Positions 15,220-34,499 of a DNA stretch of 64,000 nucleotides are shown one piece after another (the first letter of the stretch is position 1; each line of letters opens with the position of its first letter). The stretch covers positions 179,558-243,557 of the forward strand of contig CAYOAM010000001.1 in NCBI GenBank assembly GCA_964402035.1, in the 5' to 3' direction. The DNA is from an uncultured Candidatus Saccharibacteria bacterium. Its GTDB lineage: Bacteria > Patescibacteriota > Minisyncoccia > Phycocordibacterales > UBA918. The position numbers and the translations under genes are program-made. Under the pieces are notes generated by a model that saw nothing but the letters and a program-made list of their open reading frames with translations, searched no databases and was not told where the DNA came from.

Positions 15220-15256
15220 TGCTTTTATAAGCTCTATTATTCTGTAGTCTTCACAT

Positions 15257-15790
15257 ATGGATTTCAAGCGGGATGAGTTGGTGGGCATATTTGTGAGCAT
15301 TGTCATAGCAACAGCAATTTTTGCTGTGTTACGGTTTGATATGTTCACAAAGCTTCAAACCTATATGGCCACTCCATCCGAAGTAGAAACAGTGGAGATT
15401 GATGCATCAGACGACCAGAGTGCACTCAAGGAACTTTTAACAGGAAGCTTCACGAAAAATGGAAAGATTACGAAGCTAATTATTCAAGATTCCAAGGTAG
15501 GGGATGGCGCAGTTGTGCACGAAGGGTCACGCGTTACTGTGCACTATATTGGCAAGTTGCAAGATGGAACAAAATTTGACAGTTCATACGATCGCAATGA
15601 GCCATACGTATTTACGGTAGGTGAAGGAAGTGTGATCAAAGGATGGGACACTGGTCTTTTGGGTATGAAGGTCGGAGGAGAACGCATTTTGGTTATTCCC
15701 GACAATCTTGCATATGGAAATCGCGAAGTCGGTACCATACCTCCTCGTTCGACGTTGCTATTTGCTATTGAGCTAATCAAGAGTGAGTAA
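15257..15790 (+). CDS. FKBP-type peptidyl-prolyl cis-trans isomerase, membrane-anchored
   Basis: VTVHYIGKLQDGTKFDSSYDRNEPYVFTVGEGSVIKGWDTGLLGMKVGGERILVIPDNLAYG...LLFAIELI is a classic FKBP domain. N-terminal TM helix. Confidence 0.85.
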   Translation: MDFKRDELVGIFVSIVIATAIFAVLRFDMFTKLQTYMATPSEVETVEIDASDDQSALKELLTGSFTKNGKITKLIIQDSKVGDGAVVHEGSRVTVHYIGKLQDGTKFDSSYDRNEPYVFTVGEGSVIKGWDTGLLGMKVGGERILVIPDNLAYGNREVGTIPPRSTLLFAIELIKSE

Positions 15791-17022
15791 TGTCTACACC
15801 CGTCTCGTTCAGCGTGCAAAAAAAACTCAAAAATACACTAGGACGTGTAGGCACTATTCACACGCCACATGGTGATATTGAAACACCGGCTTTTGTCGTT
15901 GTGGGTACCAAGGCTACTGTGAAGTCGGTGAAGACTGACGATCTTGTGGAATACATAGGTAATCAATCGGTACTCGCCAACACCTATCATCTCTATTTGC
16001 AGCCGGGTCATGAGCTCGTGAAGGAAGCAGGTGGTCTGCATACCTTTATGAATTGGAAAGGACCACTTTGGACGGACTCTGGCGGATTTCAAGTGTTTTC
16101 TCTCGGAGCCGCGTTTGGCAAAGGTGTCAGCAAATTTCAAGCTGCTGAAGTCGTGACTGAGAGCGATCAGCGACCTACCGTGTATAGTCAAGAAAACGCA
16201 ATGGAGCACGGAAAACTTTGTGTAATTGATGAGGAGGGAGTGACCTTCACCTCACATATCGATGGGTCACTTCATCGCTTCACGGCAGAACGTTCAATAG
16301 AAATCCAACATGCACTCGGTGCCGACCTTATCTTTGTTTTTGATGAATGTACGTCTCCAAGTGCCGAGTATGACTATCAAAAAGAGGCACTGGAGCGTAC
16401 GATGCGGTGGAGCAAGCGCTCAATACTTGCGCACAAGCGCAACTATGATGCACTTAAAAAGCAGGGACTATACGGTATCGTCCAAGGGGGACGCTATACA
16501 GATTTGCGACAACAAAGCGCAACAGAACTTTCAAAAATGGATTTTGATGGCTATGGCATCGGGGGATCCTTTTCAAAAGAAGATCTTGGTGAGTCACTGC
16601 GAGTCGTCAATGAGATTTTGCCCGAAGAAAAACCACGGCATCTTTTGGGTATTGGAGAGCCTGAAGATATGTTTGCGGGAGTAGAGCAGGGATGCGATAC
16701 GTTTGATTGTGTGTTGCCAACACGTTTGGGGAGAAATGGTACGCTCTATACGAGCGGTGGCAAGATCGCGATCACAAACGCAGCGTACCAGCGAGACTTT
16801 GGACCCATAGATGCAACATGCGGCTGTATGGTGTGCAAAAATTATTCTCGTGCATACCTTGCGCATTTGTTTAAATCACATGAAATGGTCGGCTCTCATT
16901 TGGGATCACTCCACAACATTTATTTCATCACCACCTTAGTGCGCAATATCCGCAATGCAATACTAGAAGATCGGTACGCCGTGTTCAAAGATACCTTTTT
17001 TGCGAGGTATAGAGTGAAATAA
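15790..17022 (+). CDS. tgt: Queuine tRNA-ribosyltransferase (tRNA-guanine transglycosylase)
   Basis: HTPHGDIETPAFVVVGT, GIGEPED, LPTRLGRNG and Zn-site C..CGC.VC..YSRAYLAHL motifs. 410 aa. Confidence 0.9.
   Translation: MSTPVSFSVQKKLKNTLGRVGTIHTPHGDIETPAFVVVGTKATVKSVKTDDLVEYIGNQSVLANTYHLYLQPGHELVKEAGGLHTFMNWKGPLWTDSGGFQVFSLGAAFGKGVSKFQAAEVVTESDQRPTVYSQENAMEHGKLCVIDEEGVTFTSHIDGSLHRFTAERSIEIQHALGADLIFVFDECTSPSAEYDYQKEALERTMRWSKRSILAHKRNYDALKKQGLYGIVQGGRYTDLRQQSATELSKMDFDGYGIGGSFSKEDLGESLRVVNEILPEEKPRHLLGIGEPEDMFAGVEQGCDTFDCVLPTRLGRNGTLYTSGGKIAITNAAYQRDFGPIDATCGCMVCKNYSRAYLAHLFKSHEMVGSHLGSLHNIYFITTLVRNIRNAILEDRYAVFKDTFFARYRVK
16995..17022. repeat. 28-bp direct repeat copy 1 (cttttttgcgaggtatagagtgaaataa) at the tgt 3' end; left boundary of the Rhs island
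   Basis: An identical 28-mer recurs at 31592-31619. Confidence 0.8.
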
Positions 17023-17039
17023 GTAATACTGTTTTTACT

Positions 17040-17230
17040 GGTGGACGCCAGAATGCCCCGATGCTTGCATCGGGGATGAATGCCGCCCCGATTCCGCGCC
17101 GCTCTAAGCGGCATGCGGATCGGAAGCGCGCCCGGTGGGCGCACACATCCAGCTAAACACCACGGTAGTTTTCCGCTAATACCACGTCAGCTCTGCTGCG
17201 GGGATCGACGGAAAACTTATTTTTACTTAG
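17040..17230 (+). other. GC-rich structured non-coding element (several perfect hairpins) between tgt and the rhs gene; function unknown
   Basis: Local GC is well above the window background. Hairpins ccccgatgc-ttg-catcgggg, gccgct-cta-agcggc and gcgccc-ggt-gggcgc. The overlapping ORFs (16920-17144 minus, 17080-17298 plus) look spurious. Confidence 0.3.
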
Positions 17231-17294
17231 CAGTGGCACAACTTTCTTTACTTCATATAAATAGTATATATACTGATACTATTACCCTCGACAT

Positions 17295-20200
17295 ATGAAT
17301 GGTAGTAGACAATGGTGTGTATCTATCGGACAGAGTTTTAATTCAGTGTATAGAAAAACCGTGAGCATCCTGCTCGCGGTTTTTTTGTTACTCGAACCGC
17401 TCACCCCACTCTTTGCGGCAGAAGAGGTGCCACAAACAACCGACGCTCCCGCAACCACTAGTGCTCCTGTTGATACAACGCCCGTCATCACAGTACCAAG
17501 AGGTACAGAACCACCACCAGAAACCAATACTTCACAGACAGAAGACGGCGTGGAATTTAGTGTTGATGGAAAAACACCAGAGATAAAACCTCCACCAAAA
17601 GTGGAACAACCATCCGAAGATACGAAAAAGCTCGAAGAGGTAGAGCCGGAAACAGAGTCTCTCATGGGGATGGGTGGAGCAACTCAAGGTAGTGATCGTG
17701 GTCAAGTACGCCTTAGCTCAAAGATCAATGAACAGGACGGCGCATTTACGTACGACTACCCCCTTATGGTGCCTCCAGGAAGAAATGGGAGAGAACCCAG
17801 CTTAGTTCTTTCATACAATAGCAGAGGGGGAGGCGATGATGATATCTTTGGATACGGCTGGAGTATCAACATCCCTTTTATCGAGCGGGTCAACAAGGTT
17901 GGCAGCGAACAGATATTCACCCAGAGTGTTTTTTATTCCTCCCTCGGAGGTGAACTCGTACAAATAGGAAGCACGACGCAGTATCGTCCCAAAGTAGAAA
18001 CAGGAGAATTTCTAAAATATGTCTTTGCAAATGACCTCTGGAAGATCACCGATAAAAGCGGTACAGTCTACACCTTTGGGTCCACCACCTCTTCGCGCGA
18101 GGATAATGCTGCAAGTTCAACTCAGATTGCGAAATGGATGCTCGACGAGGTACGTGATACGAATGACAACTATGTAAAGTACACGTACTACAAGGCAGAC
18201 AATCGCGCGTATCCTGCGACAATCGTGTATACAGGCAGTGGGGCGACAGATGGCCCATTTTCTATTTCTTTTGTGCGTAGTACGACTACCAGCAATTCTC
18301 CCCGGTACGAAAGCGGTTTTGCCGCTACAACCACGTACCGTATTTCAGAAATTAACACTGCGGTAAGTGGCAGTTGGGTGAGAAAATATGCGCTCGCGTA
18401 TGGGGTAGGGGACAACAGTGTGCGCACACTTCTTTCAGGTATCACTGAGAGTGCACGCACCGAAGGTAGTACAGCATCAACTACCATGCCGGCAACTACG
18501 TTTACATACGAAAACACGATGAGTCAGACATGGACCGCTTCTTCATGGGCGCTTCCAGAGCCATTTACACAAAATGGCATCGACATGGGTACGCGCGATG
18601 TGGATATAAACGGTGACGGCTTTCCTGACATCATTCGTTTTTATAGAGATGCGACAGGGACTACGATCAAACGAGTGTATCTTAACAACAAGGTTGACGG
18701 CTGGACCTTGCAGAGTTCATGGGACTGGACCTACTTCACCGTACCATTTTCAGAATATTATGCAGTGGGTGACAGCAATGCGCGGAATGACAATGGTGTA
18801 CGTTTTGCGGATGTGAATGGAGACGCCTTAACTGACGTGCTCATTGGTTATGATGGAAATGGCTCGAGTGACACACAAAAAATCTATATCAACTATGGCG
18901 CCGGATGGTCGTACGATTCTTCATGGGTACTGCCTGTGTACTTCACTCGTTACTATAGCTCGCGAGTGTGGGACAACGGTGTGCGCATCGCAGATATAAA
19001 TGGTGACGGTCTTCCCGATTTAGTTTCTGCACAGTGGAATGCGTCAAGTACGCTCTCAACAGTTTTTTTGAATACCGGGAGTGGTTGGAGCACGACCACT
19101 TCATGGGTTATGCCGCGTGCATTTACTGGAGCATATGATGGTGTCCACCAAGGCAAAGACCTTGGTACACAACTAGTCGATGTGAACGGAGATGGACTTA
19201 CTGACGTGGTGCATGGGCTCAAGAGTACAATATTTGGTAACTCAAAAAATACGTATCTCAATACCGGAAGTGGTTGGGCAACAAGTACGCTATGGGACCT
19301 CCCAGACTATCTCATCTGGGCAGACGAAGCGGTGTCCGATATAGGATATCGATTTGAGGACGTCAATGGCGATGGACTTGTAGATCTTTCTATCAATAAC
19401 ACATTCGGGGGTTCGATTCCGGATGATGATATCTATATTAATACGGGTGCTGGTTGGACCAATAGTATCGGTAATTTTCCACCCTACCAGTTTGTCACAA
19501 GTACAGGAGATACAGGGGCACGCTTTATGGATGTGAATGCCGACCGTTTACCAGACGAAGTGTACGGCAACACGTCAAGTTCGACAGGGCCCGTAAGTTC
19601 CGAAGAGACCTATTTGAATCGTCGTGAAGTCGGTGACCTTCTTATCAATGTCACCGAACCGAAAGGCGGGACACTTGCCATTACCTACCAAAGCTCACAT
19701 GAGTACAGGAGTGCTGGGAGCTCGACAAATCCCTCTCTCCCATTTCCGATCACCACTGTAGCCACTACGACAAAAGATGCTGGATTCGGCACCACCGAGA
19801 CACAAGCTTATCTCTATGAAGGTGGTGACTACTGGTTTGACGCCACTCTATTTCGTGATCGTAAGTTTGCTGGATTTAGTACCATGACAAAAACTGGTCC
19901 AACTCAGAAAGAGAGAATCTATTTTCACCAAGGGAATGAGACGAATGTCACATCTGGAGAATACGCCGATGACAGTACAAAAATTGGTTTCCCATACCGC
20001 AGTGAAGTGGCCGACCTTGCTAATCGTCCCTATAAAGTCTCAACAAGTGAGTGGGTGACAAGTGACCTTGGAAGTAGCGCTTCATTTGTGAAGGAGACAC
20101 AGACGATCGATCTTGCATACGATGGAGACAGTGACTACAAAGCGCGGGCGGTGACGTATGTATACGATGACACAAACGGTCTTCTCACTACCAAAACCGA

Positions 20201-23200
20201 ATGGGGTGAAGTGACACCTACTACAACAAACTCACAGGTGGTGAGTACTTCTTCTGCTTCTATCGACCTTGAGAGTGGAAGTAGCCAACTCTTAGGTATC
20301 ACTGATGCCGCACAGTCAACACTCGATATCTTGGGAAGTATGACTATTGAGGCGTGGGTGCGCCCCGAGAGCCAACCGAGTGTTGGTGGTATTAGCGTTA
20401 TCGCCTCAAAGTGGAGTGCAAGTGCTGACCAATCCTATGCTCTGTATTATGAAAATGATGCAGGAACAAAAAAGCTTGTCTTTCGTATGGATGACACAAC
20501 AACGAACCCATCAAAGATATGCTCGCTCTCGACTACCTTGAGTGACGCAACATGGTATCACGTGGCTGTCGCATATGACGCAGCAAATGCAAGTAGCACA
20601 CTCTATGTAAACGGTAGCAGTATTGGATATTGTACAGGTCTCTATACGAGCATACTCAATTCTACGACAGATTTCCGAGTAGGGGCGTGGCAGAATACTG
20701 CAACACATTTCTTTGATGGGCTTATCGACGAACTACGTGTCTGGAGCGGAGTTCGCACACAAGCACAGATCCAAGCATCGAAAGACGCAGAGCTTGCGGG
20801 AAACGAAAGTGGCCTCCAGGCGTATTGGCGCTTGAATAACTCTTCGCTCGATACCACAACAAACGACAATGATCTTACCCTCTATGGTGGGCCAGTCTAC
20901 AGTACTTCAACACCACTTGCGTCTGTGTACACCACAGCAGCGTCACGCTTTACCTTCACTGACGCGGGGGTCGATAAACGCACAACACAGTACACCTATG
21001 CCTCAAATACTGCGGCATACGTCACACTTCTTCAGAAAGAGACTCTGCTCGATAGGGCTTCAAGTACGATACGTGAAAACAGATTCTACTACGACACTCA
21101 GGCACTCGGCACGGTGACTGACGGAAATATGACGAAAGCAGAACGCCTCGTATCTGGTTCGTCTACATACATTGATGAAGAGTGGACGTACAACAGCTAC
21201 GGGCTTGTATCACAGAGCAAAGACCCACGCGATAAAGCAACGACCTATGTCTATGACTCATACAACCTCTATCCGGCGACGACTACCAACCCTGTCTCTC
21301 ACGTACTCCTTAAATCCTACGACTATTCAAGTGGTAAGGTTGCGACGACAACCGATCCAAACAGTCGTGTGTTCGTTACTGTATACGATGCATTTGATCG
21401 ACCTATTGAGGAGCAAATTCCTGATCCTGTATCAGGTTCGCCTGTCACAAAAGCAACATATAGTTATATCGACACAGCAGGGAGTAACCGTATAGCGACA
21501 ACACAAAATCTCAATAATAGTACATCGACAGAATCGTACGACTACTTCGACGGCTTTGGACGCAAGATCCAGTCGCGTGTAGAAAGTGAGGCATCAAACA
21601 CTTTTGCAGTTCGTGACTTTTATTACAACAGCAACGGACTCTTGGATCGTGAGTCGCTCCCATATTTTAACAACGGTTCCAGTCGCACAAGTTCCACAAC
21701 CGATGCAGAGCTGTATAGCATCTACACGTACGACCCTCTCGGCCGTATTGCCACCACGACGACTGCCGTAGGTACAACAGCAACTGTCTTTGACGACTGG
21801 ACGGAACGTGTCGTTGACGCGCTTGGCAACCCGAAAGGATTTGCGTATGACGCGTACGGAAGGCTCGCAACTACAACTGAATACAATGCCTCGACGACCT
21901 ACGCCACAGCCTACCTCTGGGACATGACCGATAAGCTTGCAACTATTACCGATGCCTTGGGCAACATCCGTGCGATCACGTACGACAAACTGGGGAGGAG
22001 GCTCACACTTCAGGATCTCCATGCTTCGGCGGACACCACATTTGGTACTTCAAGTTTTGCATACGATGCATCTGGAAATCTAGGAACGACCACTGATCCC
22101 AAGGGGCAAACGGTGGTACGTACGTACGATGACGTAAACCGCATCCTCACCGAAAACTACACAGGACTTGCGGGGACTGAGATCTCGTATACGTACGACA
22201 CCTGCACTAACGGCAAAGGTAAGCTGTGCCAGGCTATACGTGCAAGTTCTGCAACGACGACCTATGCGTACACACCACCGGGACTTCTGGATATCGCTAC
22301 CACGACCGTCGGTACGTCAACGTACACCGCAAATTACGACTACGATAGACAAGGCAACCAAACGCAGCTCACGTACCCAGACGCTTCGGTGGCAAGTTAT
22401 ACGTACAACACGGGAGGGCAACTCGAAAAGGTGCAGTACAAAGAGAGTGGGGGATCCTACTCTGATGTCGTGAGCGATTTCAACTATGGTCCCCACGGCA
22501 TGATCACCTACGAGCTCTACGGCAATGGTGTCTCGACAACAAAAGTCTACGACGAAGATCAGCTCTATAGACTTAAAACCATTATTACGGTCACCGCTAC
22601 AGGTACCGTGGGGTACGGAGGCGGGGGTGATGAGCTTCGCGAACTAGAAACCTCACTCACTCTTGGTACAGACGGCACACTTCTCTTTGCGGTAGAGGAA
22701 GAAATAGGTGCCATACCTGAAGAGGAGGCGATACTCGAAGAAGAAACTGCTACTCAAGAAGAGGTCCCAGATATAACACCACCACTTGATACGGAAGATG
22801 TGGGGGAGACTCTCGAAGAAGAGAGTCCTATAGGTACAAGTACAGACGACGGTGCAGTGGCAGCAACCTCTTCCACGCCAGAAACTGCGTTTTCTTCAAC
22901 TACAGAAGAAGTCGCTTCAAGCACACCTGAGGACACGTTCCTTGAGAGTACGAGTACCATTGATATGCTTCTCGTCGGGACGACCACAGCAACCACGACT
23001 GACCTTGCAACTTCCACGACACCAATACTCACCGGTATTATGGCACTTATCGAAGGGAAGACATATGAAGAGATTGCCCGTATAAAATCAGAAGAGATTG
23101 CAAAGATTGATATGCGCGGTCTCTATACAAAAGGAGATCTTGATATCGAGATACTCGATGTGGCACAGATAGATGGTGGCATACAAGTCTTTGCGCGCGC

Positions 23201-25586: not shown

Positions 25587-25591
25587 GTAGT

Positions 25592-25852
25592 ATGAAATTA
25601 CAAGATTTAATTATTAATAATTATGAAATACTCCTTCTCGTCGCAGGATTGTTACTCACATTTCTTGGAATTATGCCTATAATCTCAAGAAATTACTATG
25701 AAAACAATTTAAGATCAGATTGGAGTAGAAACCTCTGGCTATTTTCAGAGAAAGACAGATATATATATAATAGATATGTTAGACCACTTTATCCATTGTT
25801 GGCTGGTATTACTATGATTGGTGTAGCAATCTATAAGTTTTTATATCCTTAA
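25592..25852 (+). CDS. Candidate immunity protein for the Rhs C-terminal toxin (86 aa, 2 TM helices)
   Basis: Starts 6 nt after the rhs stop. AT-rich, two hydrophobic helices (LLLVAGLLLTFLGIMPII and LLAGITMIGVAIYKFLY). Confidence 0.45.
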   Translation: MKLQDLIINNYEILLLVAGLLLTFLGIMPIISRNYYENNLRSDWSRNLWLFSEKDRYIYNRYVRPLYPLLAGITMIGVAIYKFLYP

Positions 25853-25857
25853 TACGT

Positions 25858-27021
25858 GTGACCATCTCCTCCAAAACATACACCTGGGACTATGCCAACA
25901 GACTCAGTAGCACCGTCATAGGATCCTTAAGTACCTCATACCTCTATAACCACGAAGGTCAACGAGTATACAAAACCAATGCTTCAGGTACGATAGCTTC
26001 ACCGTATACCTTCTATGAGACAGACTCAAGTACCACCACCAAGCACATCTATACCCCCAGTGGTGATCTTCTTAGTACCATCGACAAGAGGGGTAGCACC
26101 ACCACACGCTCCTATGCCCACACAGATCACTTGGGATCAACGGTCGCTATCACAAGCAATACCGGAGCAGTGTCACAAGTACTTGAATACTATCCGTATG
26201 GAGGAACACGTATAGACCAGAAGTATGGCGCTACGAACCAACGCAATAGATACATAGGACAAGACAGTGACATAGAGAACTCGCTTATCTACCTCAATGC
26301 ACGGTATTATGATGGACAGAGAGGGCAGTTCCTTTCACAGGATCCGGTGTTTCTTGGGGATGCAGAAGCTCAGGACTTGAAATATCCTCAGAATCTAAAT
26401 AGTTATTCATACTGGACGAACAATCCTATTATTAATAAAGATCCAAGCGGAAAAGCGACATACGTTGATGTTAACGGGAAAAGAATTATAGGTTCAGACA
26501 CAAATGACCCGAATACCTACTATGAGCAAGATGACATCAATATGCTCAACACAAATGCCAACCAAATGGAAAACAACAAGCTCAATGCTGTGGAGTTCTA
26601 TAATAAAGTTAACTATGGTGGTGAATGGGACTACAAAGAAGGAGGGAGGGAGTATTATTTCTTTGAAGGGGAACTGGTCGATAAGGAAACCTATGGGAAT
26701 CGTCATTATGGCTATACGGGCAGCGCAGGAGCTTTCCCGGGCGTTGTATTGAAGGCGGGTGCAGGGGCCGCTTCAGTACGACATAATAAGGGGTTTGTTA
26801 AAAATTCTTCAATGTATCTTGATGAGCAAAAAGATACCAGAAACATTCAGATGGGTATTGATGCATATCAAAGTAAAAATAGCAAAAACACAGTCAGCCT
26901 TTCTACAAAACTAAAGAATGCTAATACATCGCTCAATTATGCCCTTGAACAAGCCAAAAAAGGGAACACATATGCTGCCACTCGAGCTATAAAGAGAGCT
27001 TTCAATCAATTGAACAATTGA
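25858..27021 (+). CDS. Orphan rhs-CT cassette 2: duplicated Rhs core 3' end (about 160 aa) fused to a distinct C-terminal toxin domain; GTG start only
   Basis: Nt 26041-26333 are more than 99% identical to 24623-24915 of the main rhs gene, with divergence starting exactly after QDPVF. No ATG start is present. Confidence 0.7.
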   Translation: MTISSKTYTWDYANRLSSTVIGSLSTSYLYNHEGQRVYKTNASGTIASPYTFYETDSSTTTKHIYTPSGDLLSTIDKRGSTTTRSYAHTDHLGSTVAITSNTGAVSQVLEYYPYGGTRIDQKYGATNQRNRYIGQDSDIENSLIYLNARYYDGQRGQFLSQDPVFLGDAEAQDLKYPQNLNSYSYWTNNPIINKDPSGKATYVDVNGKRIIGSDTNDPNTYYEQDDINMLNTNANQMENNKLNAVEFYNKVNYGGEWDYKEGGREYYFFEGELVDKETYGNRHYGYTGSAGAFPGVVLKAGAGAASVRHNKGFVKNSSMYLDEQKDTRNIQMGIDAYQSKNSKNTVSLSTKLKNANTSLNYALEQAKKGNTYAATRAIKRAFNQLNN

Positions 27022-27028
27022 ATTTAAG

Positions 27029-27700
27029 ATGAAAATTATACATAAAATTGCAAGCCGTATCCGACATCATTACGTTTTGTCAGCATTGTTGGTTAATTTG
27101 ATTCTCAGTATTCTACTGACTTGTATTTTACTTTTCGGTATACGTCTAACTCATGTGCTTTACCAAGCAGCCCTGTTAAATTTTGTTTTCTTGGAGTGCT
27201 TTATAAATTTTGTATTTATCACTTGGTATTTGTTTGGACGTGTATCAAAAATACTAAAATCAGGGCTTCTTTCGCTCATTATCCAATCCCTTAAATATGC
27301 TCTCTTATTTTTTATTGGGATTTGGAGTTTCTTTTTTATTTTTCTTTCACTCGTAGATTTTCATCGCCTCCTTAAGGATGGATATGACGGAAGTTACCTG
27401 CCCGTCCAAACTGTTACTATTGATGAAAATCAGAATATAGTCGTCTATCGAACAAACGGAGGTGCCACAACAGATTTTGGCGTTGAGATTCGAAGAGAGA
27501 AATACTTATCCCTTGGATTCAAATGGGTTAAAACACTTAGAGAGTATTATCATGTGAGCGATATTAAACTAAGTACTTTAAATACTTCTCAGGTCATGAT
27601 AGAAGAGGTAAAAGGTACCAGCCATGTGTATACCTCAAGCGAGGAAAAATGGTACGGCCCTCTCCCCGTGAGAGGTGAGGTAATTGATATTTTTCGTTGA
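27029..27700 (+). CDS. Candidate immunity protein for orphan CT2 (223 aa, multi-TM N-terminal half)
   Basis: Starts 8 nt after the CT2 stop. 5-6 TM helices in the first 110 aa, then a soluble domain. Confidence 0.45.
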   Translation: MKIIHKIASRIRHHYVLSALLVNLILSILLTCILLFGIRLTHVLYQAALLNFVFLECFINFVFITWYLFGRVSKILKSGLLSLIIQSLKYALLFFIGIWSFFFIFLSLVDFHRLLKDGYDGSYLPVQTVTIDENQNIVVYRTNGGATTDFGVEIRREKYLSLGFKWVKTLREYYHVSDIKLSTLNTSQVMIEEVKGTSHVYTSSEEKWYGPLPVRGEVIDIFR

Positions 27701-27737
27701 AACTAGACTAGAAACGGTAGAATGTAGAGAAATGGTG

Positions 27738-27756
27738 GAAATGGGGACAGGTACTT
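27738..27756. repeat. Degenerate REP-like copy (ggaaatggggacaggtac)
   Basis: Shares the ggaaatggggacagg core with the REP arrays flanking the RAYT gene. Confidence 0.4.
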
Positions 27757-28073
27757 TTTTAAAGAGACACAAGCGAGTGTTTCTTAGCAATAATATTTTT
27801 TGTAAAATCTGCTCAAATAGCCTAGCAAGCTAACCCATCGACAAGAAAGGCAGCACTACCACGAGATCCTATGCCCACACAGATCACTTAGGAAGTACGG
27901 TCGCTATCACCTCAAACACTGGAGCAGTCTCTCAAATACTTGAATACTACCCATATGGAGGTACCCGTATAGACCAGAAGTATGGAGCTACAAACCAACG
28001 CAATAGGTACGTTGGGCAGGACTATGACCAAGAAACGAATCTCAATTACCTGCAACAGAGATATCAAAATTCA

Positions 28074-28754
28074 GTGAATGGGCAGTTTATTTCTCAAGAC
28101 CCGGTGTTCCTAGACATAGGACTTAATACCAACGAGGGGAAGGTAGTGATGAGGAATCCGCAAGCAATGAACTCGTATAGTTATGCACAAAATAGTCCTT
28201 TGGTATTGAAAGATCCGAGTGGAAGGAGCGCTGCAGCCATAGGAGGCTTAGAAGGCCTAGCTGCGTTATCCGCACTTGTTGCTCCGGAAGTTGTTGTTCC
28301 GGTAGTGGCAGCAGTTGCAATTGTTACGACGGGGATTGTATTATATGAAAACGGAAAGCAGATTTGGATGGGACCAGTCCAAACTATCAATTTACCCCCA
28401 CCACCGATAGATCCTCTTGACCCGGGAGGTCCACCAAATTTCAAAGGACCAAAGTGGAAACAAGCAATTATTTGGACGACTATCGGAATTGGTGGTTTAG
28501 AGGGGGTACTTGAAAACTATCCAAAGGGAGGCAATTCGAATTCTACTAAACAATCAAACACTACAAATTCAACCAACTCAACTGCCAAATCTCCAACTTA
28601 TAATCAACCTTCTCCATACCAAAATAATCATCCCACTAATAATGACGCGGCATACAGTTTAATAAAGCAAGCTGAAAAAGCCATTGCTAATAAGGATTAT
28701 GGTGCTGCAAAAAAATACCTAAAGAACGCATCGAAAGCCTTAAATGGGAAGTAA
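28074..28754 (+). CDS. Orphan rhs-CT cassette 3 (start-less): an in-frame Rhs-core remnant begins at 27837 immediately after a TAA stop; third distinct C-terminal toxin domain
   Basis: Frame is open from 27837 (IDKKGSTTTRSYAHTDHLGSTVAITSNTGAVSQILEYYPYGGTRIDQ...QDPVFLD), about 80% nt identity to the main core. Only a GTG at 28074 is available as a start. The C-terminal domain is Gly/Pro/Asn-rich with a hydrophobic helix. Confidence 0.55.
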   Translation: MNGQFISQDPVFLDIGLNTNEGKVVMRNPQAMNSYSYAQNSPLVLKDPSGRSAAAIGGLEGLAALSALVAPEVVVPVVAAVAIVTTGIVLYENGKQIWMGPVQTINLPPPPIDPLDPGGPPNFKGPKWKQAIIWTTIGIGGLEGVLENYPKGGNSNSTKQSNTTNSTNSTAKSPTYNQPSPYQNNHPTNNDAAYSLIKQAEKAIANKDYGAAKKYLKNASKALNGK

Positions 28755-28803
28755 AATGTTTCTAAAAAAGCTCAGTAATAAATTAAACTTTAGGTAATAA
28801 TAT

Positions 28804-29067
28804 ATGGCTATATTCATGTTTTTCTTTTGGATCTCGCTGACCTTAATTTGTCTGTTTCTATCCAGAAAATATAAAGGGGGGCATTATAGAGAAGCATCAT
28901 ATTTTACAAGTGCAGCCTTACTATTTTATGTGTTTAAATATTTTGTTAATAACACAACTATTTTCTCACCCGAAACACTATCTCTTATTGAAAAAATAAA
29001 TTTTATATTTTGGATTATATGGGCGTCTTTATTTTTATATTTTGTGATAAAAAAGAAAATTTGGTAG
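28804..29067 (+). CDS. Small membrane protein (87 aa), immunity candidate
   Basis: Very AT-rich. 2-3 TM helices. Confidence 0.4.
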   Translation: MAIFMFFFWISLTLICLFLSRKYKGGHYREASYFTSAALLFYVFKYFVNNTTIFSPETLSLIEKINFIFWIIWASLFLYFVIKKKIW

Positions 29068-29111
29068 TTATCCATTTTTAATAAAGGACCATACAGGATA
29101 ATCTAAAAAGT

Positions 29112-29387
29112 ATGTCCGTACCCCTTGTATCTTTGCTTGCCTATCCAGTTCTTATCTTATTTGGAATTTATTACTGGAAAAAATATAACGATCCTTCAAT
29201 TCCTTGGTATTTGTTTCCCGTAATAGGACTTTTAGTATTGACCGTATCTCAATGGTTTTTAGGTACGAATTTTAACTTAAGTGAGGATGATCAAGCAATT
29301 GAATTTTTAATATTTACTGCTCTTAGGGTCTTAATGGGAGGGACACTTTTAATTGTATTCTTAATAAATTTTTTCAAGAAGAAATGA
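29112..29387 (+). CDS. Small membrane protein (91 aa), immunity candidate
   Basis: AT-rich. 3 TM helices. Ends in KKK. Confidence 0.4.
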   Translation: MSVPLVSLLAYPVLILFGIYYWKKYNDPSIPWYLFPVIGLLVLTVSQWFLGTNFNLSEDDQAIEFLIFTALRVLMGGTLLIVFLINFFKKK

Positions 29388-29405
29388 TTTTCGAAATCTT
29401 AAACC

Positions 29406-29768
29406 CTAGTTAATTTTAGTTTTAATTTGAAAAGTAATTTTGTCCATCTCTACATTTGATTGAGAATCGTGACTAGCCCTTAATCTTATTGGTACTGAAC
29501 CAGTGAGGATCACCTTGCCGTGGTCATAGCTGATGCTTTCTACAAAATCTATAAGGAACTTCCTTTTTGCTTTAAGGTCGATACTCCTTTCAAATCTTGC
29601 TCGTGTAGTCTCACAAAATATCCTTAAGTTCGCATCGATTATATCCTCATCGTGCAGGGTGGGTATTTGTTTGAGAAGTTCCTTTAAATCAAGGAAATGG
29701 ATCAGAAATGGGGACAGGGACAATACTTTAAACAAAGGAAATGGGGACAGGGACAATACTTTAAACAA
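29406..29768 (-). CDS. Hypothetical ORF whose N-terminal 30 codons are encoded by the REP repeats; probably a disrupted gene remnant
   Basis: The N-terminus MFKVLSLSPFPLFKVLSLSPF is the translation of the tandem REP units. No internal ATG except near the C-terminus. Confidence 0.2.
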   Translation of the reverse strand: MFKVLSLSPFPLFKVLSLSPFLIHFLDLKELLKQIPTLHDEDIIDANLRIFCETTRARFERSIDLKAKRKFLIDFVESISYDHGKVILTGSVPIRLRASHDSQSNVEMDKITFQIKTKIN

Positions 29769-29770
29769 AA
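29691..29770. repeat. Left REP-like array: 2.3 tandem copies of ggaaatggggacagggacaatactttaaacaaa (33-nt period)
   Basis: Seen directly. Inverted relative to the array at 30480-30554. Confidence 0.8.
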
Positions 29771-29788
29771 GTATTGCATAATATTGTC

Positions 29789-30457
29789 ATGCCTCGCCAA
29801 GCACGTGTTGCGGTGAAAGATGTGGTGTACCATGTCATCAATCGTTCCAATGGTCGAGCGAGGATATTCGAGAAAGACAGTGACTATCAGCATTTTGAGT
29901 CACCGCTCACCGAAGCCCGGGAACTAACAGATATGCGTATCCTTGCATACTGTATTATGCCCAACCATTGGCATCTTATACTCCATCCACGTTCAGACAC
30001 CAACCTTGCTGAATTTATGAGTTGGCTCACCACGACTCATGTCCGCCAGTATCGCACTCGCACGCAAAGTATTGGCTATGGTCACCTCTATCAAGATCGA
30101 TACAAATCATTTCCCGTTGAGACCAATGACTATTGCGCAACACTGATCCGCTACATTGAACAGAACCCATTGCGCGCTCGACTCATTCAAAGAGCCGAAG
30201 ACTGGCAATGGTCAAGTCTCTGGAGACGAGAGCAGGGAAGCGATGCACAGAAGAGGCTGCTTGCGGAGTTACCCACTGACCTTCCTGCAAACTATCTGCA
30301 GTCTGTGAATGAGATACTTAAACCTAAAATAATAGAAAATATTCGTTACTCGGTGAACAAAGGAAAACCATATGGCTCAGAAAGGTGGGTGAGTACCATG
30401 GTGGGTGACTTTGCATTAAGGTATACGCTTCGTGGTCCAGGTCGTCCGAAGAAATAG
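29789..30457 (+). CDS. REP-associated tyrosine transposase (RAYT, IS200/Y1 HUH family)
   Basis: HUH motif HWHLILH and catalytic Tyr region (YIEQNPLRARL..EDWQWSS). Aligns by eye with the E. coli RAYT YafM pattern. Maximal ORF from TTG 29774. Confidence 0.85.
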   Translation: MPRQARVAVKDVVYHVINRSNGRARIFEKDSDYQHFESPLTEARELTDMRILAYCIMPNHWHLILHPRSDTNLAEFMSWLTTTHVRQYRTRTQSIGYGHLYQDRYKSFPVETNDYCATLIRYIEQNPLRARLIQRAEDWQWSSLWRREQGSDAQKRLLAELPTDLPANYLQSVNEILKPKIIENIRYSVNKGKPYGSERWVSTMVGDFALRYTLRGPGRPKK

Positions 30458-31010
30458 AAAATATTACACAATGAAAAGTGGAAAAATATTGTCCCTGTCC
30501 CCAATTTCCTGGAAAAATATTGTCCCTGTCCCCAATTTCCTCCCCAATTTCCTGAATCCAGTAGGTTCACTGATTGATTCCGTTACGGCTGCAAAAGATA
30601 AACTGGTGGAATTCCAAAACAGCAGTGACCCAGAGCGAGATGCCATGCTTGCTGATGGAATTATCACTTTTGCAGAGATGGTCGTGTTGCGAAATCGTGG
30701 GAATGTGGGGGATGACGTTATTAGAGAGACTCTTAGCGGAAGTGGGGACATTCGAAGAGTACACAGATTGTCATCAACTGATGCACTCACAACAGGTGAA
30801 CAATTCCTCGGTCCTGGTTATAAACAACTAGGTAAGCCAAATTCAGGTGTGTTTAGAAGCGCTGATGGACTGAGGCAATTTAAGATTGATGGGGGATCAC
30901 TTATCCATCCACAAGGAGCACACGTCAGTTTTGAAGCGTTTAATGTAAGTCAGTCTACTAACCCGTATGCAGAACCGTATGTAAACAATCACGTCTTTTT
31001 AACAAATTAA
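30432..31010 (+). CDS. Putative orphan toxin C-terminal domain (5' part overlaps the RAYT 3' end and REP array; the real module probably starts near 30556)
   Basis: Location in the cassette array with a small gene immediately 3'. No recognisable Rhs core upstream, consistent with displacement by the REPIN-RAYT insertion. Domain family not recognised. Confidence 0.3.
   Translation: MVQVVRRNRKYYTMKSGKILSLSPISWKNIVPVPNFLPNFLNPVGSLIDSVTAAKDKLVEFQNSSDPERDAMLADGIITFAEMVVLRNRGNVGDDVIRETLSGSGDIRRVHRLSSTDALTTGEQFLGPGYKQLGKPNSGVFRSADGLRQFKIDGGSLIHPQGAHVSFEAFNVSQSTNPYAEPYVNNHVFLTN
30480..30554. repeat. Right REP-like array: 2.4 tandem copies of ggaaaaatattgtccctgtccccaatttcc (reverse complement of the left units)
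   Basis: Seen directly. Together with 29691-29770 it forms inverted REP doublets around the RAYT gene (REPIN-like). Confidence 0.8.
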
Positions 31011-31013
31011 AAT

Positions 31014-31331
31014 ATGCAAGAAATTTACTTTAACAGAATAGGCATCCTGCGAAAAAGTATACATCCAAAAGAAATTGGTTGGTATATTACGATTCAAGAT
31101 GATACTCAAATCAGTGGAGGGTGCAAAGTTTTTACTTCAAATAATATTGATTTTGAGTCTGATGCAAGTGACGCAGCAAAAATTGTCTTTGATCATTGGT
31201 ATGAAACAGAACTTCACGTATCTAAAGGCATTGAAGCATGGGGTCGAGAGATTGAGTGGACTAACAATTATATCACCATTGAGTGGGCAGATGATATGAA
31301 ATCATGGAAGTGGAAGAAAATGGATAAATAG
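31014..31331 (+). CDS. Candidate immunity protein (105 aa, soluble, Trp-rich)
   Basis: Starts 4 nt after the preceding stop. No TM helices. Confidence 0.35.
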   Translation: MQEIYFNRIGILRKSIHPKEIGWYITIQDDTQISGGCKVFTSNNIDFESDASDAAKIVFDHWYETELHVSKGIEAWGREIEWTNNYITIEWADDMKSWKWKKMDK

Positions 31332-31359
31332 TAATGTAAATAAGGTATCAACTACCTTT

Positions 31360-31533
31360 ATGCCCAAAACTTCAGTAGCCCCATACTCCAAAACATACAC
31401 CTGGGACTATGCAAATAGACTCACAGGTACCACCATAGGCTCTCTCAGTACCACCTATCAATACAACCACGAAGGTCAGCGTGTATACAAAACCAATGCC
31501 TCAGGCACCACGACGATATACATATTAGTATAA
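31360..31533 (+). pseudogene. Truncated Rhs core remnant (57 codons, MPKTSVAPYSKTYTWDYANRLTGTTIGSLSTTYQYNHEGQRVYKTNASG...)
   Basis: Homologous to main-gene region 24440-24570 (SKTYTWDYANRLSSTVIGSLTTTYQYNHEGQRVYKTNASG). Ends in a stop after 8 unrelated codons. Confidence 0.5.
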
Positions 31534-31591
31534 ATTCTATATGAAACGGTTTCTGGAATGAATCGGAAAATAGTGACTGTCCTCAATTTCA

Positions 31592-31619
31592 CTTTTTTGC
31601 GAGGTATAGAGTGAAATAA
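31592..31619. repeat. 28-bp direct repeat copy 2 (identical to 16995-17022); right boundary of the Rhs island
   Basis: Seen directly. Perfect match to the tgt 3' end. Confidence 0.8.
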
Positions 31620-31652
31620 AAAATACCGATTTTGCCAGTGTGGCAGAATCGG
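31612..31652 (-). terminator. Rho-independent terminator for the minus-strand gene 31679-32023
   Basis: Hairpin ccgattttgcca / tggcagaatcgg followed on the minus strand by a TATTTTTTATTT tract. Confidence 0.5.
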
Positions 31653-31678
31653 CATTTGAGCGATACACCGTCATGTGG

Positions 31679-32023
31679 TCATGGAATCAGTCTTTCGGCA
31701 CATACCTTTGCGGTCGCGCCGCTATATTTGTCGGCGATCGGAAGTCCAACCTTAAGCCATTTCTCCACCTCGGCTGGGCGTTGCCAGTTTGATACTGTTT
31801 TGAGGCTCTGCAACACAATCTCGACATCGGGTCGTTTCTTGAATTGAACAACGCAGATGGCGCCTAAGGCGTCAGCGACTGCTGCGTTCGCTGCTGTCTG
31901 TGCCGAGTCTCTGGCTGTTCCGCTAGTAACCCAGCCGCCCCACCAGAAGCCGACGATAGTTGCAGCAATTACCCCTGCGACCGCACCCTTTACTGCATAC
32001 CAAAACTTGTCAGGAATCTTCAT
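31679..32023 (-). CDS. Small membrane-anchored hypothetical protein (114 aa)
   Basis: TM helix (VAGVIAATIVGFWWGGWV). Terminator downstream. Confidence 0.5.
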   Translation of the reverse strand: MKIPDKFWYAVKGAVAGVIAATIVGFWWGGWVTSGTARDSAQTAANAAVADALGAICVVQFKKRPDVEIVLQSLKTVSNWQRPAEVEKWLKVGLPIADKYSGATAKVCAERLIP

Positions 32024-32456: not shown

Positions 32457-34499
32457 ATGGATAAATTTGTACTCAAAACTGACCACAGGCCGGCCGGGGA
32501 TCAACCCGCGGCCATTAAAAGCCTGATCGCTGGTGTCCATGAGGGCATGAAGCATCAGACTCTTTTGGGTGTGACGGGGTCTGGAAAGACGTTTACGGCA
32601 GCGAATGTGATAGAAGCAATTGGAAAGCCAACGCTAGTGATTGCGCACAACAAGACCCTCGCTGCACAGCTTGCGCAAGAATACCGTGATTTTTTCCCAG
32701 AAAATGCCGTCCACTATTTCGTCTCATACTACGACTATTATCAGCCGGAAGCGTATATGCCGGTCTCGGATACCTATATTGAGAAAGAAGCACAAATCAA
32801 TGAAGAAATCGAACGCCTTCGTCACGCCTCAACACAAGCGCTGCTCACACGTAAAGACGTAATTATTGTTGCATCGGTTTCGTGCATTTATGGATTGGGG
32901 TCACCTATTGAGTATGAGAAGGTGCATAAAAAAATAGCGCGTGGTTTTGCTACATCGCGCACTGAGATGATCCGCTTTCTCATTGGCATGTATTTTGAAC
33001 GTACAAATGCCGACCTCACGCCGGGACATTTTCGGGCGGTAGGAAATCATATTGAAATCATGCCGACCAATGAGCGATCGATATACAGGCTATCGTTTGA
33101 TAAGGATGGAGTATCGATGATCACCAAAATCGATGCCATCACGAGATCTATCATGGTTGAATCTGTCGATACCTTCTTCCTATTTCCTGCAAAACACTTT
33201 GTGACACCGGAGGGGGAGCGTGCACGAGCTATCAAAGATATACAAGAAGAACTCGATGTGCAGCTTAAGAAATTCGCCGATGCGGGGAAATTGCTTGAGG
33301 CGGAGCGTCTAAAGCGACGTACGACATACGACCTCGCGCTTATCCGTGAAGTAGGCTATTGCAATGGGATTGAAAATTATTCACGCCATTTTGATGGTCG
33401 CAACGCTGGAGAAGCTCCGTACACACTCCTCTCCTATTTTCCCCACAAAGAAGATGGGACTCCAGATTTCCTCACTATCATCGACGAATCACATGTCACG
33501 ATTCCGCAGCTTGCGGGTATGTATGCGGGTGATCGATCACGCAAGGTGACGCTGGTCGATTTCGGTTTTCGTCTACCGAGCGCGATTGATAATCGTCCGC
33601 TCAACTTTGACGAGGTAGAGGAGCGTCTTGGGCAACGTATCTACACATCGGCAACACCAGGTACCTACGAATACACGCATTCAGTGCCGAAGGATGGGCA
33701 GATAGTGGAGCAGATTATTCGTCCTACTGGACTCATTGACCCCTTGATCGAGATACGTCCTATTGTTGAGCATGATACGTATCCAGGTCAGGTGCGTGAC
33801 TTTATAGCGCATGCCGAACGTGTGATCGCTGAAGGTGGTCGAGTACTCGTAACAACACTTACCAAAAAAATGGCCGAAGATCTTTCGGAATTTTTAAAAG
33901 AGCGAAACATAAAAGCAGAATATATTCATAGTGATATTAAGACTATCGACCGCATCATCATACTTACTAACTTTAGAAAAGGTGTGTTTGATTGCTTGGT
34001 GGGAGTCAATCTTTTGCGTGAAGGGCTTGATCTCCCCGAAGTCGAGCTCGTGTCTATTTTTGATGCAGATAAAGAAGGTTTTTTGCGTTCTGAAACATCA
34101 CTTATCCAGACAATCGGTCGCGCTGCTCGCAATGTCAAAGGGAAGGTGGTGCTGTATGCAGATCAGATCACCGAGTCAATGCGGAAATCGATACGTGAGA
34201 CGGATCGTCGTCGAGCACTGCAAGTCACGTACAACGAAAAACATGGCATTACTCCGCGAACGATCATCAAAGCGATCCACGATATTACAGAAGCGATGCA
34301 CACTGAGCATGAAAAGACGCTGGGTACACTGATGGCGATCGACGCAGAACTATATACTGCAAATCCTAAAGCATTTATCAAAGAAAAAAAAGAGCAAATG
34401 CAGGAGGCGGTCAAGATACTTGATTTTGAAACGGCAGCAATACTGCGCGATGAGATTGCGCTACTTGAAGACAAGCCAAAGAAAAAGAAACGCTCATAG
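32457..34499 (+). CDS. uvrB: Excinuclease ABC subunit B
   Basis: Walker A GVTGSGKTF. YFVSYYDYYQPEAY. C-terminal UVR domain (ETAAILRDEIALLE). Confidence 0.95.
   Translation: MDKFVLKTDHRPAGDQPAAIKSLIAGVHEGMKHQTLLGVTGSGKTFTAANVIEAIGKPTLVIAHNKTLAAQLAQEYRDFFPENAVHYFVSYYDYYQPEAYMPVSDTYIEKEAQINEEIERLRHASTQALLTRKDVIIVASVSCIYGLGSPIEYEKVHKKIARGFATSRTEMIRFLIGMYFERTNADLTPGHFRAVGNHIEIMPTNERSIYRLSFDKDGVSMITKIDAITRSIMVESVDTFFLFPAKHFVTPEGERARAIKDIQEELDVQLKKFADAGKLLEAERLKRRTTYDLALIREVGYCNGIENYSRHFDGRNAGEAPYTLLSYFPHKEDGTPDFLTIIDESHVTIPQLAGMYAGDRSRKVTLVDFGFRLPSAIDNRPLNFDEVEERLGQRIYTSATPGTYEYTHSVPKDGQIVEQIIRPTGLIDPLIEIRPIVEHDTYPGQVRDFIAHAERVIAEGGRVLVTTLTKKMAEDLSEFLKERNIKAEYIHSDIKTIDRIIILTNFRKGVFDCLVGVNLLREGLDLPEVELVSIFDADKEGFLRSETSLIQTIGRAARNVKGKVVLYADQITESMRKSIRETDRRRALQVTYNEKHGITPRTIIKAIHDITEAMHTEHEKTLGTLMAIDAELYTANPKAFIKEKKEQMQEAVKILDFETAAILRDEIALLEDKPKKKKRS

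Follow-up and report, generated by a model that had tools for sequence, protein, structure and literature searches.

The window analyzed here is a 64-kb stretch of DNA from a tiny Patescibacteria (CPR) genome. In it, a 14.6-kb block lies between tgt and uvrB, and the 3' end of tgt is found at both ends of the block. The features of the locus are as follows.

15790..17022, + strand: tgt (queuine tRNA-ribosyltransferase), the target gene; Pfam TGT E=2.2e-136; the left repeat copy consists of its final 28 bases
16995..17043, + strand: left repeat, attL-like; 28 bases the same as the right copy, then 14/21 matches
17040..17230, + strand: GC-rich (64-70%) folded non-coding leader between the left repeat and the Rhs start
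17295..25586, + strand: main Rhs toxin gene, 2763 aa; SpvB, FG-GAP, LamG, YD shell and variable C-terminal toxin (Pfam; TEN_YD-shell)
25592..25852, + strand: candidate immunity gene 1, 86 aa, directly 3' of the toxin C-terminus; hydrophobic segments in the translation, no Pfam match
25858..27021, + strand: orphan Rhs module 1, a core fragment plus an Ntox44 domain (E=1.8e-11)
27029..27700, + strand: candidate immunity gene 2, 223 aa; hydrophobic segments in the translation, no significant Pfam match
27835..28754, + strand: orphan Rhs module 2, a degenerate core fragment plus a C-terminal domain; ORF from 28074
28804..29387, + strand: two small hydrophobic ORFs of 87 and 91 aa, candidate immunity genes; no Pfam match
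29409..29693, - strand: large serine recombinase gene stump, the last ~95 codons, in ORF 29406-29768 (-); catalytic, recombinase and zinc-ribbon parts gone
29705..30540, + strand: RAYT unit with a Y1 (IS200-like) transposase gene at 29774-30457; Y1_Tnp E=1.6e-19
30541..31331, + strand: ORF without Rhs core, to 31010, and a 105-aa candidate immunity ORF at 31014-31331; no family match
31360..31533, + strand: truncated orphan Rhs core fragment, starting at the core position of orphan module 1 and breaking off after YKTNASGT
31592..31640, + strand: right repeat, attR-like; the second, non-coding copy of the tgt 3' end
31625..31655: hairpin, 12-pair stem; folding z -4.6 (+) and -5.4 (-), followed on the minus strand by a U-tract
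31679..32023, - strand: 114-aa ORF separating the island from uvrB; GC content 54%, practically no relatives
32457..34499, + strand: uvrB (Pfam), 71-73% identical to the tgt-adjacent uvrB in two related loci (L002 and L003)

The contents of the block agree with the preliminary description, which listed an Rhs gene, orphan modules, candidate immunity ORFs and a RAYT gene with its repeats. The main gene has RHS_repeat and TEN_YD-shell matches, its homologs are common in Patescibacteria MAGs, and core homology stops before the divergent C-termini. The orphan modules, one with Ntox44, share core fragments through repeat families D1-D3 and D5. Families D1/D2 in orphan module 1 are 89-96% identical to 24444-24949, orphan module 2 contains a third D1 copy at 74% and D5 at 79%, and the D3 copies at 31386-31508 and 24452-24574 are 82% and 83% identical, respectively, to the reference copy at 25869-25991. 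From their translations, we infer that the small hydrophobic ORFs of the array may have an immunity role. The ORF ending at 31010 is possibly a toxin domain, judged solely by its position and sequence. The RAYT gene sits between two inverted doublets of a 31-33-base repeat (D7, D8, I1-I4), with 24-base arms that are 92% complementary; a search limited to the window detected one degenerate copy elsewhere (27738-27770, 67%). Enterobacterial rhs loci are polymorphic toxins with orphan toxin-immunity modules. Like these loci, the block has a gene for a large protein that combines a YD shell with a variable C-terminal toxin; a small candidate immunity gene comes next, and then an array of orphan modules whose start is a common core fragment. 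Unlike them, the N-terminal SpvB/FG-GAP/LamG region is typical of Patescibacteria relatives, the whole locus lies between att-like repeats, and the array contains a serine recombinase stump and a RAYT unit.

All close relatives, and many distant ones, keep tgt and uvrB next to each other. The closest relatives (tgt identity 73-75%) keep the gene order PGA_cap-FKBP-tgt-uvrB-Big_13. An empty site in related genomes had been proposed as a check on the insertion, and such sites were found: in about 40 related Paceibacteria-like loci, with tgt identity of only 55-75%, tgt lies directly before uvrB, with a gap of -1 to 2626 bp versus 15,435 bp here. Within the species, the searches gave no empty site, no circular junction and no copy bearing attP. 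Judged by the tgt-uvrB order of its relatives, the 14.6-kb block is a real insertion at the tgt 3' end. The target gene is intact; tgt is full length, the left repeat copy completes a gene of normal length, and the C-terminus FKDTFFARYRVK fits the family pattern of its relatives, FKxxFLxxYxx. The island is compositionally foreign. Its tetranucleotide signature correlates at 0.58-0.66 with that of the remaining window, versus 0.91-0.94 for core segments, a difference that the repetitive Rhs coding sequence may inflate. We know of no description of tgt as an integration target of islands.

The 28-mer CTTTTTTGCGAGGTATAGAGTGAAATAA occurs in two exact copies on the + strand, at 16995-17022 and 31592-31619, with zero mismatches, and no third copy is present in the 64-kb window even with 3 mismatches tolerated. 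A 28-mer match appeared in 0 of 100 shuffled sequences, and the chance expectation for exact 28-mer pairs in 64 kb is about 2.5e-7. The perfect 28-bp direct repeat reported earlier is real and limited to two copies in the window, but its content is slightly different from that reported: instead of seven tgt codons and the stop, it comprises one base of a Thr codon, eight full codons (FFARYRVK) and TAA. Similarity runs past the stop codon on the right side, where 14 of 21 bases match in register (empirical probability about 1e-4). The extended repeat (family D9), 16995-17043 versus 31592-31640, is 86% identical over 49 bases, and the two island ends thus carry direct repeats of the kind seen in integrative islands and CIMEs. 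The left flanks are without similarity (p about 0.75), which gives the repeat a sharp left edge. The lack of similarity on the left together with in-register matches on the right fits recombination between two pre-existing similar sites, not a fill-in duplication. Indeed, this asymmetry is the shape expected of attL and attR sites that would result from recombination of a chromosomal gene end with an element-borne copy of that end. The right copy lies outside any gene because an in-frame stop is present at 31542-31544, 48 bases upstream of the repeat. The strong hairpin after the right copy of the 28-mer is probably the original two-way terminator of tgt and the convergent 114-aa ORF; membership of this ORF in the island is uncertain.

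The repeat is not an assembly artefact, since its junctions recur across independent assemblies and in a variant strain. The right junction is present in four independent assemblies (L082-L085). The left junction is present in a locus that represents five contigs with exactly this tgt (L001; the other four were collapsed as similar places) and also in a strain that is 99.6% identical, with 6 SNPs (L179). The 28-mer was absent from IMG/VR and JGI metagenome contigs, no other relative surveyed carries the tgt-end duplication, and related Rhs loci do not as a rule have repeats at their flanks.

The preliminary description held that no integrase is present in the island. It is correct that an intact gene is absent: no island ORF has a recombinase domain, and none was detected when ORFs and called genes in the remainder of the 64-kb window were inspected, with ORFs of at least 120 aa taken at the two ends. 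However, a gene for a large serine recombinase survives in the island as a 3' stump. A profile of the tail gave 29409-29693 (-) as its sole match in the search (E=3.6e-34). A phmmer search with the stump gave 195 matches; those of 564-580 aa align at residues ~460-555 and carry Resolvase and Recombinase domains, and four of five also carry Zn_ribbon_recom. Family members matched the stump in tblastn with E values down to 3e-25. With 13 family members as queries, five of them full length, tblastn found the tail alone, without Resolvase, Recombinase or zinc ribbon, and no further recombinase remnants to the right of the stump. The stump is convergent with the Rhs array and is surrounded on both sides by toxin modules, and its edge coincides with the left start of the RAYT repeat unit. 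Full-length relatives of the recombinase adjoin Rhs modules in four loci on other metagenomic contigs (L174-L177), of which at least one belongs to a CPR genome. In one of these, from Cand. Falkowbacteria (L174), the recombinase is beside an Ntox44 array that matches orphan module 1 with E=2e-50. Downstream of the closest Rhs homolog (L092) lies an intact large serine recombinase gene in convergent orientation, in an element with a TrwB coupling protein.

The bracketing 28-bp repeat and the serine integrase stump lead us to read the island as a worn-out mobile element of a familiar kind. It is rather likely that the 14.6-kb block is a decayed CIME-like integrative island with Rhs toxin cargo and that the repeats are its attL and attR. 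The circular form of the element would have carried a short copy of the tgt 3' end, consisting of the 28 identical bases and a diverged downstream sequence, and would have recombined with the chromosomal tgt end. At attL, the last tgt codons and stop would now be supplied by the element; at attR, the displaced original tgt end and its terminator hairpin would lie 14.6 kb away, before uvrB. The integrase was probably the large serine recombinase whose stump points inward from the right end; when still intact, its gene would have had its end some 0.5 kb from attR. This gene may then have been wrecked as the RAYT repeat unit arrived and toxin modules were turned over, leaving an island that would be immobile by itself and CIME-like, with att sites and cargo and no working recombinase. 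We infer both that site-specific recombination made the repeat and that the recombinase of the stump was the agent. The earlier att-like reading of the repeats is supported in part, by the insertion at the tgt 3' end, the foreign composition and the attL/attR-like asymmetry, and among the alternatives it offered, a decayed or immobilized island is favored.

Some observations count against this reading. Among them are results given above: no empty site, circular junction or attP-bearing copy in the species, no 28-mer in IMG/VR or the JGI metagenome contigs, no tgt-end duplication in another relative, and no general flanking of related Rhs loci by repeats. The short dyads read around the reconstructed attB and attP differ in their centre. 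The truncated Rhs core fragment is only 84 bp from the right repeat, leaving little room for a classical attP arm. Since the stump lies amid toxin modules and no remnants are found to its right, it could stem from a second element unrelated to the tgt repeat. Moreover, sites of large serine recombinases usually share a short core alone, and 28 identical bases are long for that class. It is therefore equally possible that a tyrosine recombinase acting in trans made the tgt repeat.

Alternatively, the locus may have been replaced from a related donor that already had the island behind its tgt. A fragment with the donor tgt end, the sequence following it and the island would have entered through homologous recombination at its left end, either within tgt or before it, and through an illegitimate join at its right end, the latter leaving the last 28 bases of the recipient tgt and its terminator as a relic. 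Such a replacement requires no integrase and predicts the same asymmetry: the illegitimate join would form the sharp left edge, and the diverged similarity to the right would be orthologous non-coding DNA. At a distance of 84 bp from the repeat, the truncated Rhs fragment also resembles an arbitrary breakpoint. However, all of the about 9 sites capable of synonymous change would have remained unchanged (28/28) while the adjoining non-coding DNA diverged by a third (14/21 matches), for which a rough estimate gives p about 0.04-0.1. Replacement also leaves the recombinase stump unexplained and merely shifts the origin of the insertion to another lineage, yet no surveyed relative has more than 2.6 kb at this position. 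This route is considered unlikely.

A single crossover of the Campbell type by general recombination of the host, between tgt and a circle with 28-49 bp of tgt-end homology, would need no dedicated integrase and is judged improbable. It would account for the lack of an intact integrase in the island or the examined 64-kb window, and the block of identity with an imperfect extension recalls the microcin H47 island, which has "extensive and imperfect direct repeats" and takes its recombination functions from the host (PMC3191183). Yet such a crossover gives no reason for a foreign circle to bear precisely the final 28 bases of tgt without any sequence before them, and the recombinase stump is a more direct agent. 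A length of 28 bases is also near the lower limit for RecA-mediated exchange.

Two further explanations appear very improbable. Target-site duplication by RAYT/Y1 or another transposase, with cuts staggered by 28 bp, would agree with the perfect core repeat and the Y1 gene inside the block, but both edges should then be sharp, while the right one tapers off with 14 of 21 bases in register, and the inverted repeats of RAYT delimit a 0.8-kb unit rather than the island; known target duplications are far shorter than 28 bp and, to our knowledge, Y1/IS200-family enzymes make none. Integration by host XerC/D at a dif-like site suits the 28-bp length, which is that of dif sites, and IMEX elements have no integrase of their own and end up between two dif-like sites, but the 28-mer lacks a dif-like dyad (two 11-bp arms and a 6-bp centre), it is the coding end of tgt, and the positive GC skew on both sides of the locus, with no switch, indicates that the locus is not at the replication terminus.

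CIMEs (1.2-13 kb; PMC7563491) are an established class of decayed elements that have kept att sites and cargo and lack an integrase, and the tgt island would probably belong to this kind. In streptococci, CIMEs and decayed ICE/IME derivatives occupy the 3' ends of fda, rpsI or rpmG (PMC7563491). They share with the tgt island att direct repeats at the 3' end of a conserved housekeeping gene, cargo and the lack of a working recombination module, and they derive by decay from elements that bear an integrase (PMC7563491). The ~13-kb microcin H47 island of E. coli likewise contains antibacterial-toxin genes between imperfect direct repeats, and it excises and integrates through these repeats while encoding no recombinase (PMC3191183). 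In contrast, the att sites of the streptococcal elements, which have tyrosine integrases, were validated by excision, and the host-dependent excision and integration of H47 were demonstrated experimentally, whereas the only recombinase trace of the tgt island, a stump that points to former autonomy, is of the serine type, and the island differs from the streptococcal CIMEs in its CPR host and Rhs array cargo. SGI1 is located at the 3' end of trmE and SCCmec at that of rlmH, and other islands are specific to dusA (PMC2297512, PMC10581047, PMC4482086). As at tgt, the target is an RNA-modification gene, and short direct repeats bracket the island and preserve the gene. Unlike the tgt island, these islands have other target genes and hosts, repeats of 15-18 bp, and recombinases that are intact and characterized. 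A further parallel is that SCC elements rely on large serine recombinases (Ccr) and also occur as pseudo-SCC forms that lack a recombinase.

It may tentatively be proposed that CPR genomes harbor a family of mobile Rhs toxin cassettes that are moved by large serine recombinases, encoded distally in the array, and that insert as whole loci at the 3' ends of housekeeping genes such as tgt. If so, the recombinases could also bring in or exchange orphan toxin modules, and a stump would be the sign of an island that an incoming relative can still mobilize in trans.

Finally, two features of the island were absent from the preliminary description, the large-serine-recombinase stump and the GC-rich folded leader that precedes the Rhs gene. 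The leader has a fold z-score of -4.96, with 0 of 200 shuffles folding equally well, and its sequence is unique within the window. The search for RNA families gave just a sub-threshold match to cyano_tmRNA (16 bits). A promoter-like site is located at 17247-17274, upstream of the Rhs gene.

The results presented here confirm that the end of tgt is repeated in the window. As the preliminary description had stated, the 28-mer CTTTTTTGCGAGGTATAGAGTGAAATAA has two exact copies (16995-17022 and 31592-31619); each lies on the plus strand. By chance, a 64-kb sequence would contain about 2.5e-7 exact pairs of 28-mers, so the repeat is far above expectation. No third copy was found in the window at up to 3 mismatches, and 0 of 100 shuffles matched. 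The first copy forms the 3' end of tgt (15790-17022; Pfam TGT, E=2e-136) and contains one base of a Thr codon, eight codons (FFARYRVK) rather than the seven previously counted, and TAA. The second copy is non-coding, with an in-frame stop at 31542-31544, 48 bases upstream. Four independent assemblies span the right junction, from the island through the 28-mer to the uvrB side: a 453-kb ENA contig, two Logan contigs and a 3.5-kb ENA contig that begins 16 bases before the repeat. The left junction is found on L001, the representative of five contigs with the exact tgt protein (the other four were collapsed as similar places), and on L179, a contig from a third sample that matched 16330-17824 at 99.6% with 6 SNPs. 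The recovery of the junctions in several assemblies, together with the 6-SNP contig, indicates that the repeat structure is real and common to at least two strains. The exact 28-mer had no match in IMG/VR or JGI metagenome contigs.

The host is a member of the Patescibacteria (CPR) of the Paceibacteria type, and its closest tgt relatives are 69% identical in the species-representative genome collection and 75% identical in the large protein collection. The block between the repeats was very probably acquired, as an insertion that separates tgt from uvrB. Among the closest relatives the order PGA_cap, FKBP, tgt, uvrB, Big_13 is that of the window minus the block, and in the related loci L002 and L003, the latter on a complete 617-kb chromosome, the gene directly 3' of tgt is a uvrB that is 71-73% identical to that of the window. 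The tgt-uvrB distance ranges from -1 to 2626 bp in about 40 related loci, versus 15,435 bp in the window. The empty site suggested earlier is therefore seen in relatives, where tgt is followed by uvrB without the block, but no island-free contig of this species was found, nor any attP copy or junction of an excised circle. Among 80 related tgt loci there was no convincing case of a downstream copy of the locus's own tgt end. In tetranucleotide composition the Rhs gene (r 0.58) and the array (0.66) correlate less well with the remaining window than do five core segments (0.91-0.94), a contrast that may be inflated by repetitive Rhs coding sequence. In the tgt-uvrB gaps of relatives a search for a conserved non-coding RNA found none, and the gaps showed no DNA similarity. 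Downstream of the island, uvrB, a Big_13 surface protein gene, uvrA and uvrC cluster at 32457-41781; the uvrB-Big_13-uvrA order is common to the closest relatives, with one or two genes intervening in some loci. A 114-aa ORF (31679-32023, minus) between the island and uvrB has 54% GC, versus about 46% for the genome. It was considered as a conserved tgt neighbour and rejected as essentially without relatives, with a single distant one among 5.8 billion proteins. The ORF could be another relic of foreign DNA, lying beyond the repeats.

The shape of the repeat is informative about its origin. Left of the 28-mer the two copies are dissimilar, with 3-5 in-register matches per 20 bases and a local alignment p of about 0.75, whereas on the right 14 of the next 21 positions are identical in register (repeat family D9; empirical P about 1e-4). 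The right copy reaches a hairpin at 31625-31655 with a 12-pair stem, which folds far better than shuffles on both strands and has a U-tract 3' of it on the minus strand. This hairpin is probably the original two-way terminator of tgt and the convergent 114-aa ORF. A degenerate version of the same hairpin sequence lies downstream of the left copy. Fill-in duplication predicts two sharp edges; the asymmetric repeat is a better fit to recombination of two pre-existing similar sequences. The putative attB and attP junctions can be reconstructed as follows.

attB: ...GTGTTCAAAGATAC + 28-mer + AAAATACCGATTTTGCCAGTG...
attP: ...GACTGTCCTCAATTTCA + 28-mer + GTAATACTGTTTTTACTGG...

The most economical reading is that the island is a decayed integrative element with the Rhs locus as cargo. 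A circular form bearing a copy of the tgt end would have recombined with the chromosomal tgt end to give attL and attR, and the serine integrase of the element would have been destroyed later, after integration. It seems fairly likely that the repeat was made by recombination of such an element-borne tgt mimic with tgt. The interpretation of the copies as att-like duplications at a gene end thus finds partial support, in the insertion at tgt and in the recombination-like asymmetry of the repeat. Replacement by DNA of a donor locus, joined illegitimately on the right, would also bring in a block with unlike edges, but is unlikely. A RecA-type single crossover on the 28-49 bases of homology at the site is less likely still. 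A target duplication made by a transposase and Xer/dif integration are both very improbable, and were rejected in view of the repeat shape and GC skew.

The features between the repeats, in gene order, are as follows.

17040-17230, GC-rich (64-70%) folded non-coding leader (fold z=-4.96), between the left repeat and the Rhs start
main Rhs gene, 2763 aa, with SpvB, FG-GAP, LamG and YD shell
small hydrophobic ORF, directly 3' of the main Rhs gene
orphan module 1, with an Ntox44 toxin domain and a core fragment that shares 89-96% identity with the main Rhs gene
223-aa hydrophobic ORF, 3' of orphan module 1
orphan module 2, degenerate, then two small hydrophobic ORFs
29406-29768, minus, 120-aa ORF that includes a recombinase stump
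29705-30540, RAYT unit, a Y1 transposase gene with doublets of a 31-33-base repeat on either side, inverted relative to each other
30541-31010, ORF without Rhs core or family match, with a 105-aa partner ORF
31360-31533, truncated Rhs core fragment, ending 58 bp before the second 28-mer copy

The folded leader has no second copy in the window and no Rfam match above threshold. Its only hit, to cyano_tmRNA (16 bits versus a gathering score of 70), was regarded as spurious; ARAGORN finds nothing and the supposed tag frame is implausible. The stretch may be a leader RNA of the Rhs gene or what was once an attP arm. The core of orphan module 1 (25861-26366) is closer to the main Rhs gene (24444-24949) than are the other orphan modules, at only 74-83%, which suggests a recent duplication or gene conversion. 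Such near-identical cores are a substrate for recombinational toxin switching. In the RAYT unit the repeat forms tandem doublets on both sides of the gene; one more degenerate copy (27738-27770, 67%) lies 3' of the 223-aa ORF, and two Logan contigs break within the right doublet, at the second repeat copy. Core homology in the truncated Rhs fragment ends 84 bp short of the right repeat.

The preliminary description reported no integrase in the island. It is correct that the island ORFs encode no intact recombinase; in the remainder of the 64-kb window none was seen either among the called genes and ORFs analysed, with a minimum ORF length of 120 aa at the two ends. However, the stump of a serine recombinase gene is present (29409-29693, minus), and the decayed island, offered earlier as one alternative, becomes the favoured reading. 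Exhaustive phmmer with the 120-aa ORF gave 195 matches. The long matches (564-580 aa) have Resolvase and Recombinase domains, with Zn_ribbon_recom in 4 of 5, and align to the ORF by their residues ~460-555. In tblastn these recombinases hit the stump with E down to 3e-25 and no other convincing place in the window; weak matches at 31952-32035 and 45518-45673 are unsupported by the recombinase tail profile and were regarded as noise. The sole match of that profile in the window is the stump (E=3.6e-34). Together, these searches identify the ORF as the 3' remainder (~95 codons) of a large serine recombinase gene. The homology ends 11 bases before the left RAYT doublet (29705), and the first 22 residues of the ORF are translated RAYT repeat. 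By alignment with P0247, the best full-length relative, the intact gene would have spanned 29406 to about 31075, ~0.5 kb from the right repeat and reading inward, and the expected span of the lost part is now occupied by the RAYT unit and toxin modules. An integrase gene near the element end and reading inward is a common layout in integrase-bearing elements. That the recombinase of the stump itself made the repeat is a tentative proposal, somewhat short of an even chance; 28 identical bases is long for a serine recombinase site. The stump lies inside the array with toxin modules on both sides, and may therefore belong to a second element that landed there.

A link between large serine recombinases and Rhs modules is seen again in three other, mutually unrelated metagenomic contexts, of which at least one belongs to a CPR genome. 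P0247, annotated as 'recombinase family protein [Candidatus Falkowbacteria bacterium]', is found on L174 (region 8274-14848) as one of two tandem recombinases. Phage-like genes lie on one side of this pair and an Rhs array on the other, and modules of the array match orphan module 1 of the window (E=2e-50), Ntox44 included. On contigs L175-L177 (L175, 10001-16160) a second relative, P0314, adjoins an orphan Rhs core module (E about 1e-20), along with a TrwB-type coupling protein, DUF3768 and a Shedu defence gene. The same set is carried by an element on L092. Here, in the region 9436-19817, the gene for the closest homologue of the Rhs protein of the window (46% identity) has 3' of it an intact large serine recombinase gene, convergent with it and of another subfamily than the stump. 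A recombinase 3'-end fragment lies upstream of this Rhs gene and the tail of the intact recombinase downstream (9469-9585 and 18279-18395), so a recombinase tail stands on each side of the Rhs cassette, perhaps because elements accumulated in tandem. The 117-base repeat there is not an insertion duplication but the diverged second tail (77%). A third relative, on L178, has no Rhs neighbour, and no Rhs relatives were found in viral contigs. Bracketing of Rhs loci by repeats of the upstream gene end is not a rule, with two unrelated cases (L107, L161) in 40 loci.

It is textbook knowledge that genomic islands can be flanked by a duplicated gene end, and the tgt repeat itself is therefore unsurprising. 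Islands at the ends of other RNA-modification genes, trmE (SGI1), rlmH (SCC) and dusA, are well known. Read as a decayed element, the island corresponds to the established class of cis-mobilizable elements (CIMEs), decayed ICE/IME derivatives that retain att sites together with 1.2-13 kb of cargo and lack the recombination module (PMC7563491), and is like the integrase-less microcin H47 island (PMC3191183). Its value lies in the setting, a CPR host with an acquired interbacterial toxin arsenal that is large relative to the genome (about 3% of the 453-kb contig) and a recurrent recombinase-Rhs pairing. No paper joining Rhs, orphan and serine recombinase was found in the open-access library searched. 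The island appears to record its life history, with integration at tgt, growth of the orphan array and loss of the serine integrase where the RAYT unit sits. The pairing suggests a route of weapon exchange among reduced, episymbiotic CPR bacteria.

Finally, a smaller structure of similar kind is found at tRNA-Ala (45103-45177). The last 21 bases of the gene and its terminator hairpin recur at 45430-45510 (94%), with a partial third copy at 45566-45646 and ~193 bp without genes between the first two copies. MicroCIMEs are 130-220 bp in length (PMC7563491). The arrangement of the repeats at 45103-45646 resembles a microCIME, in which an att-flanked element at a tRNA gene has lost its contents.
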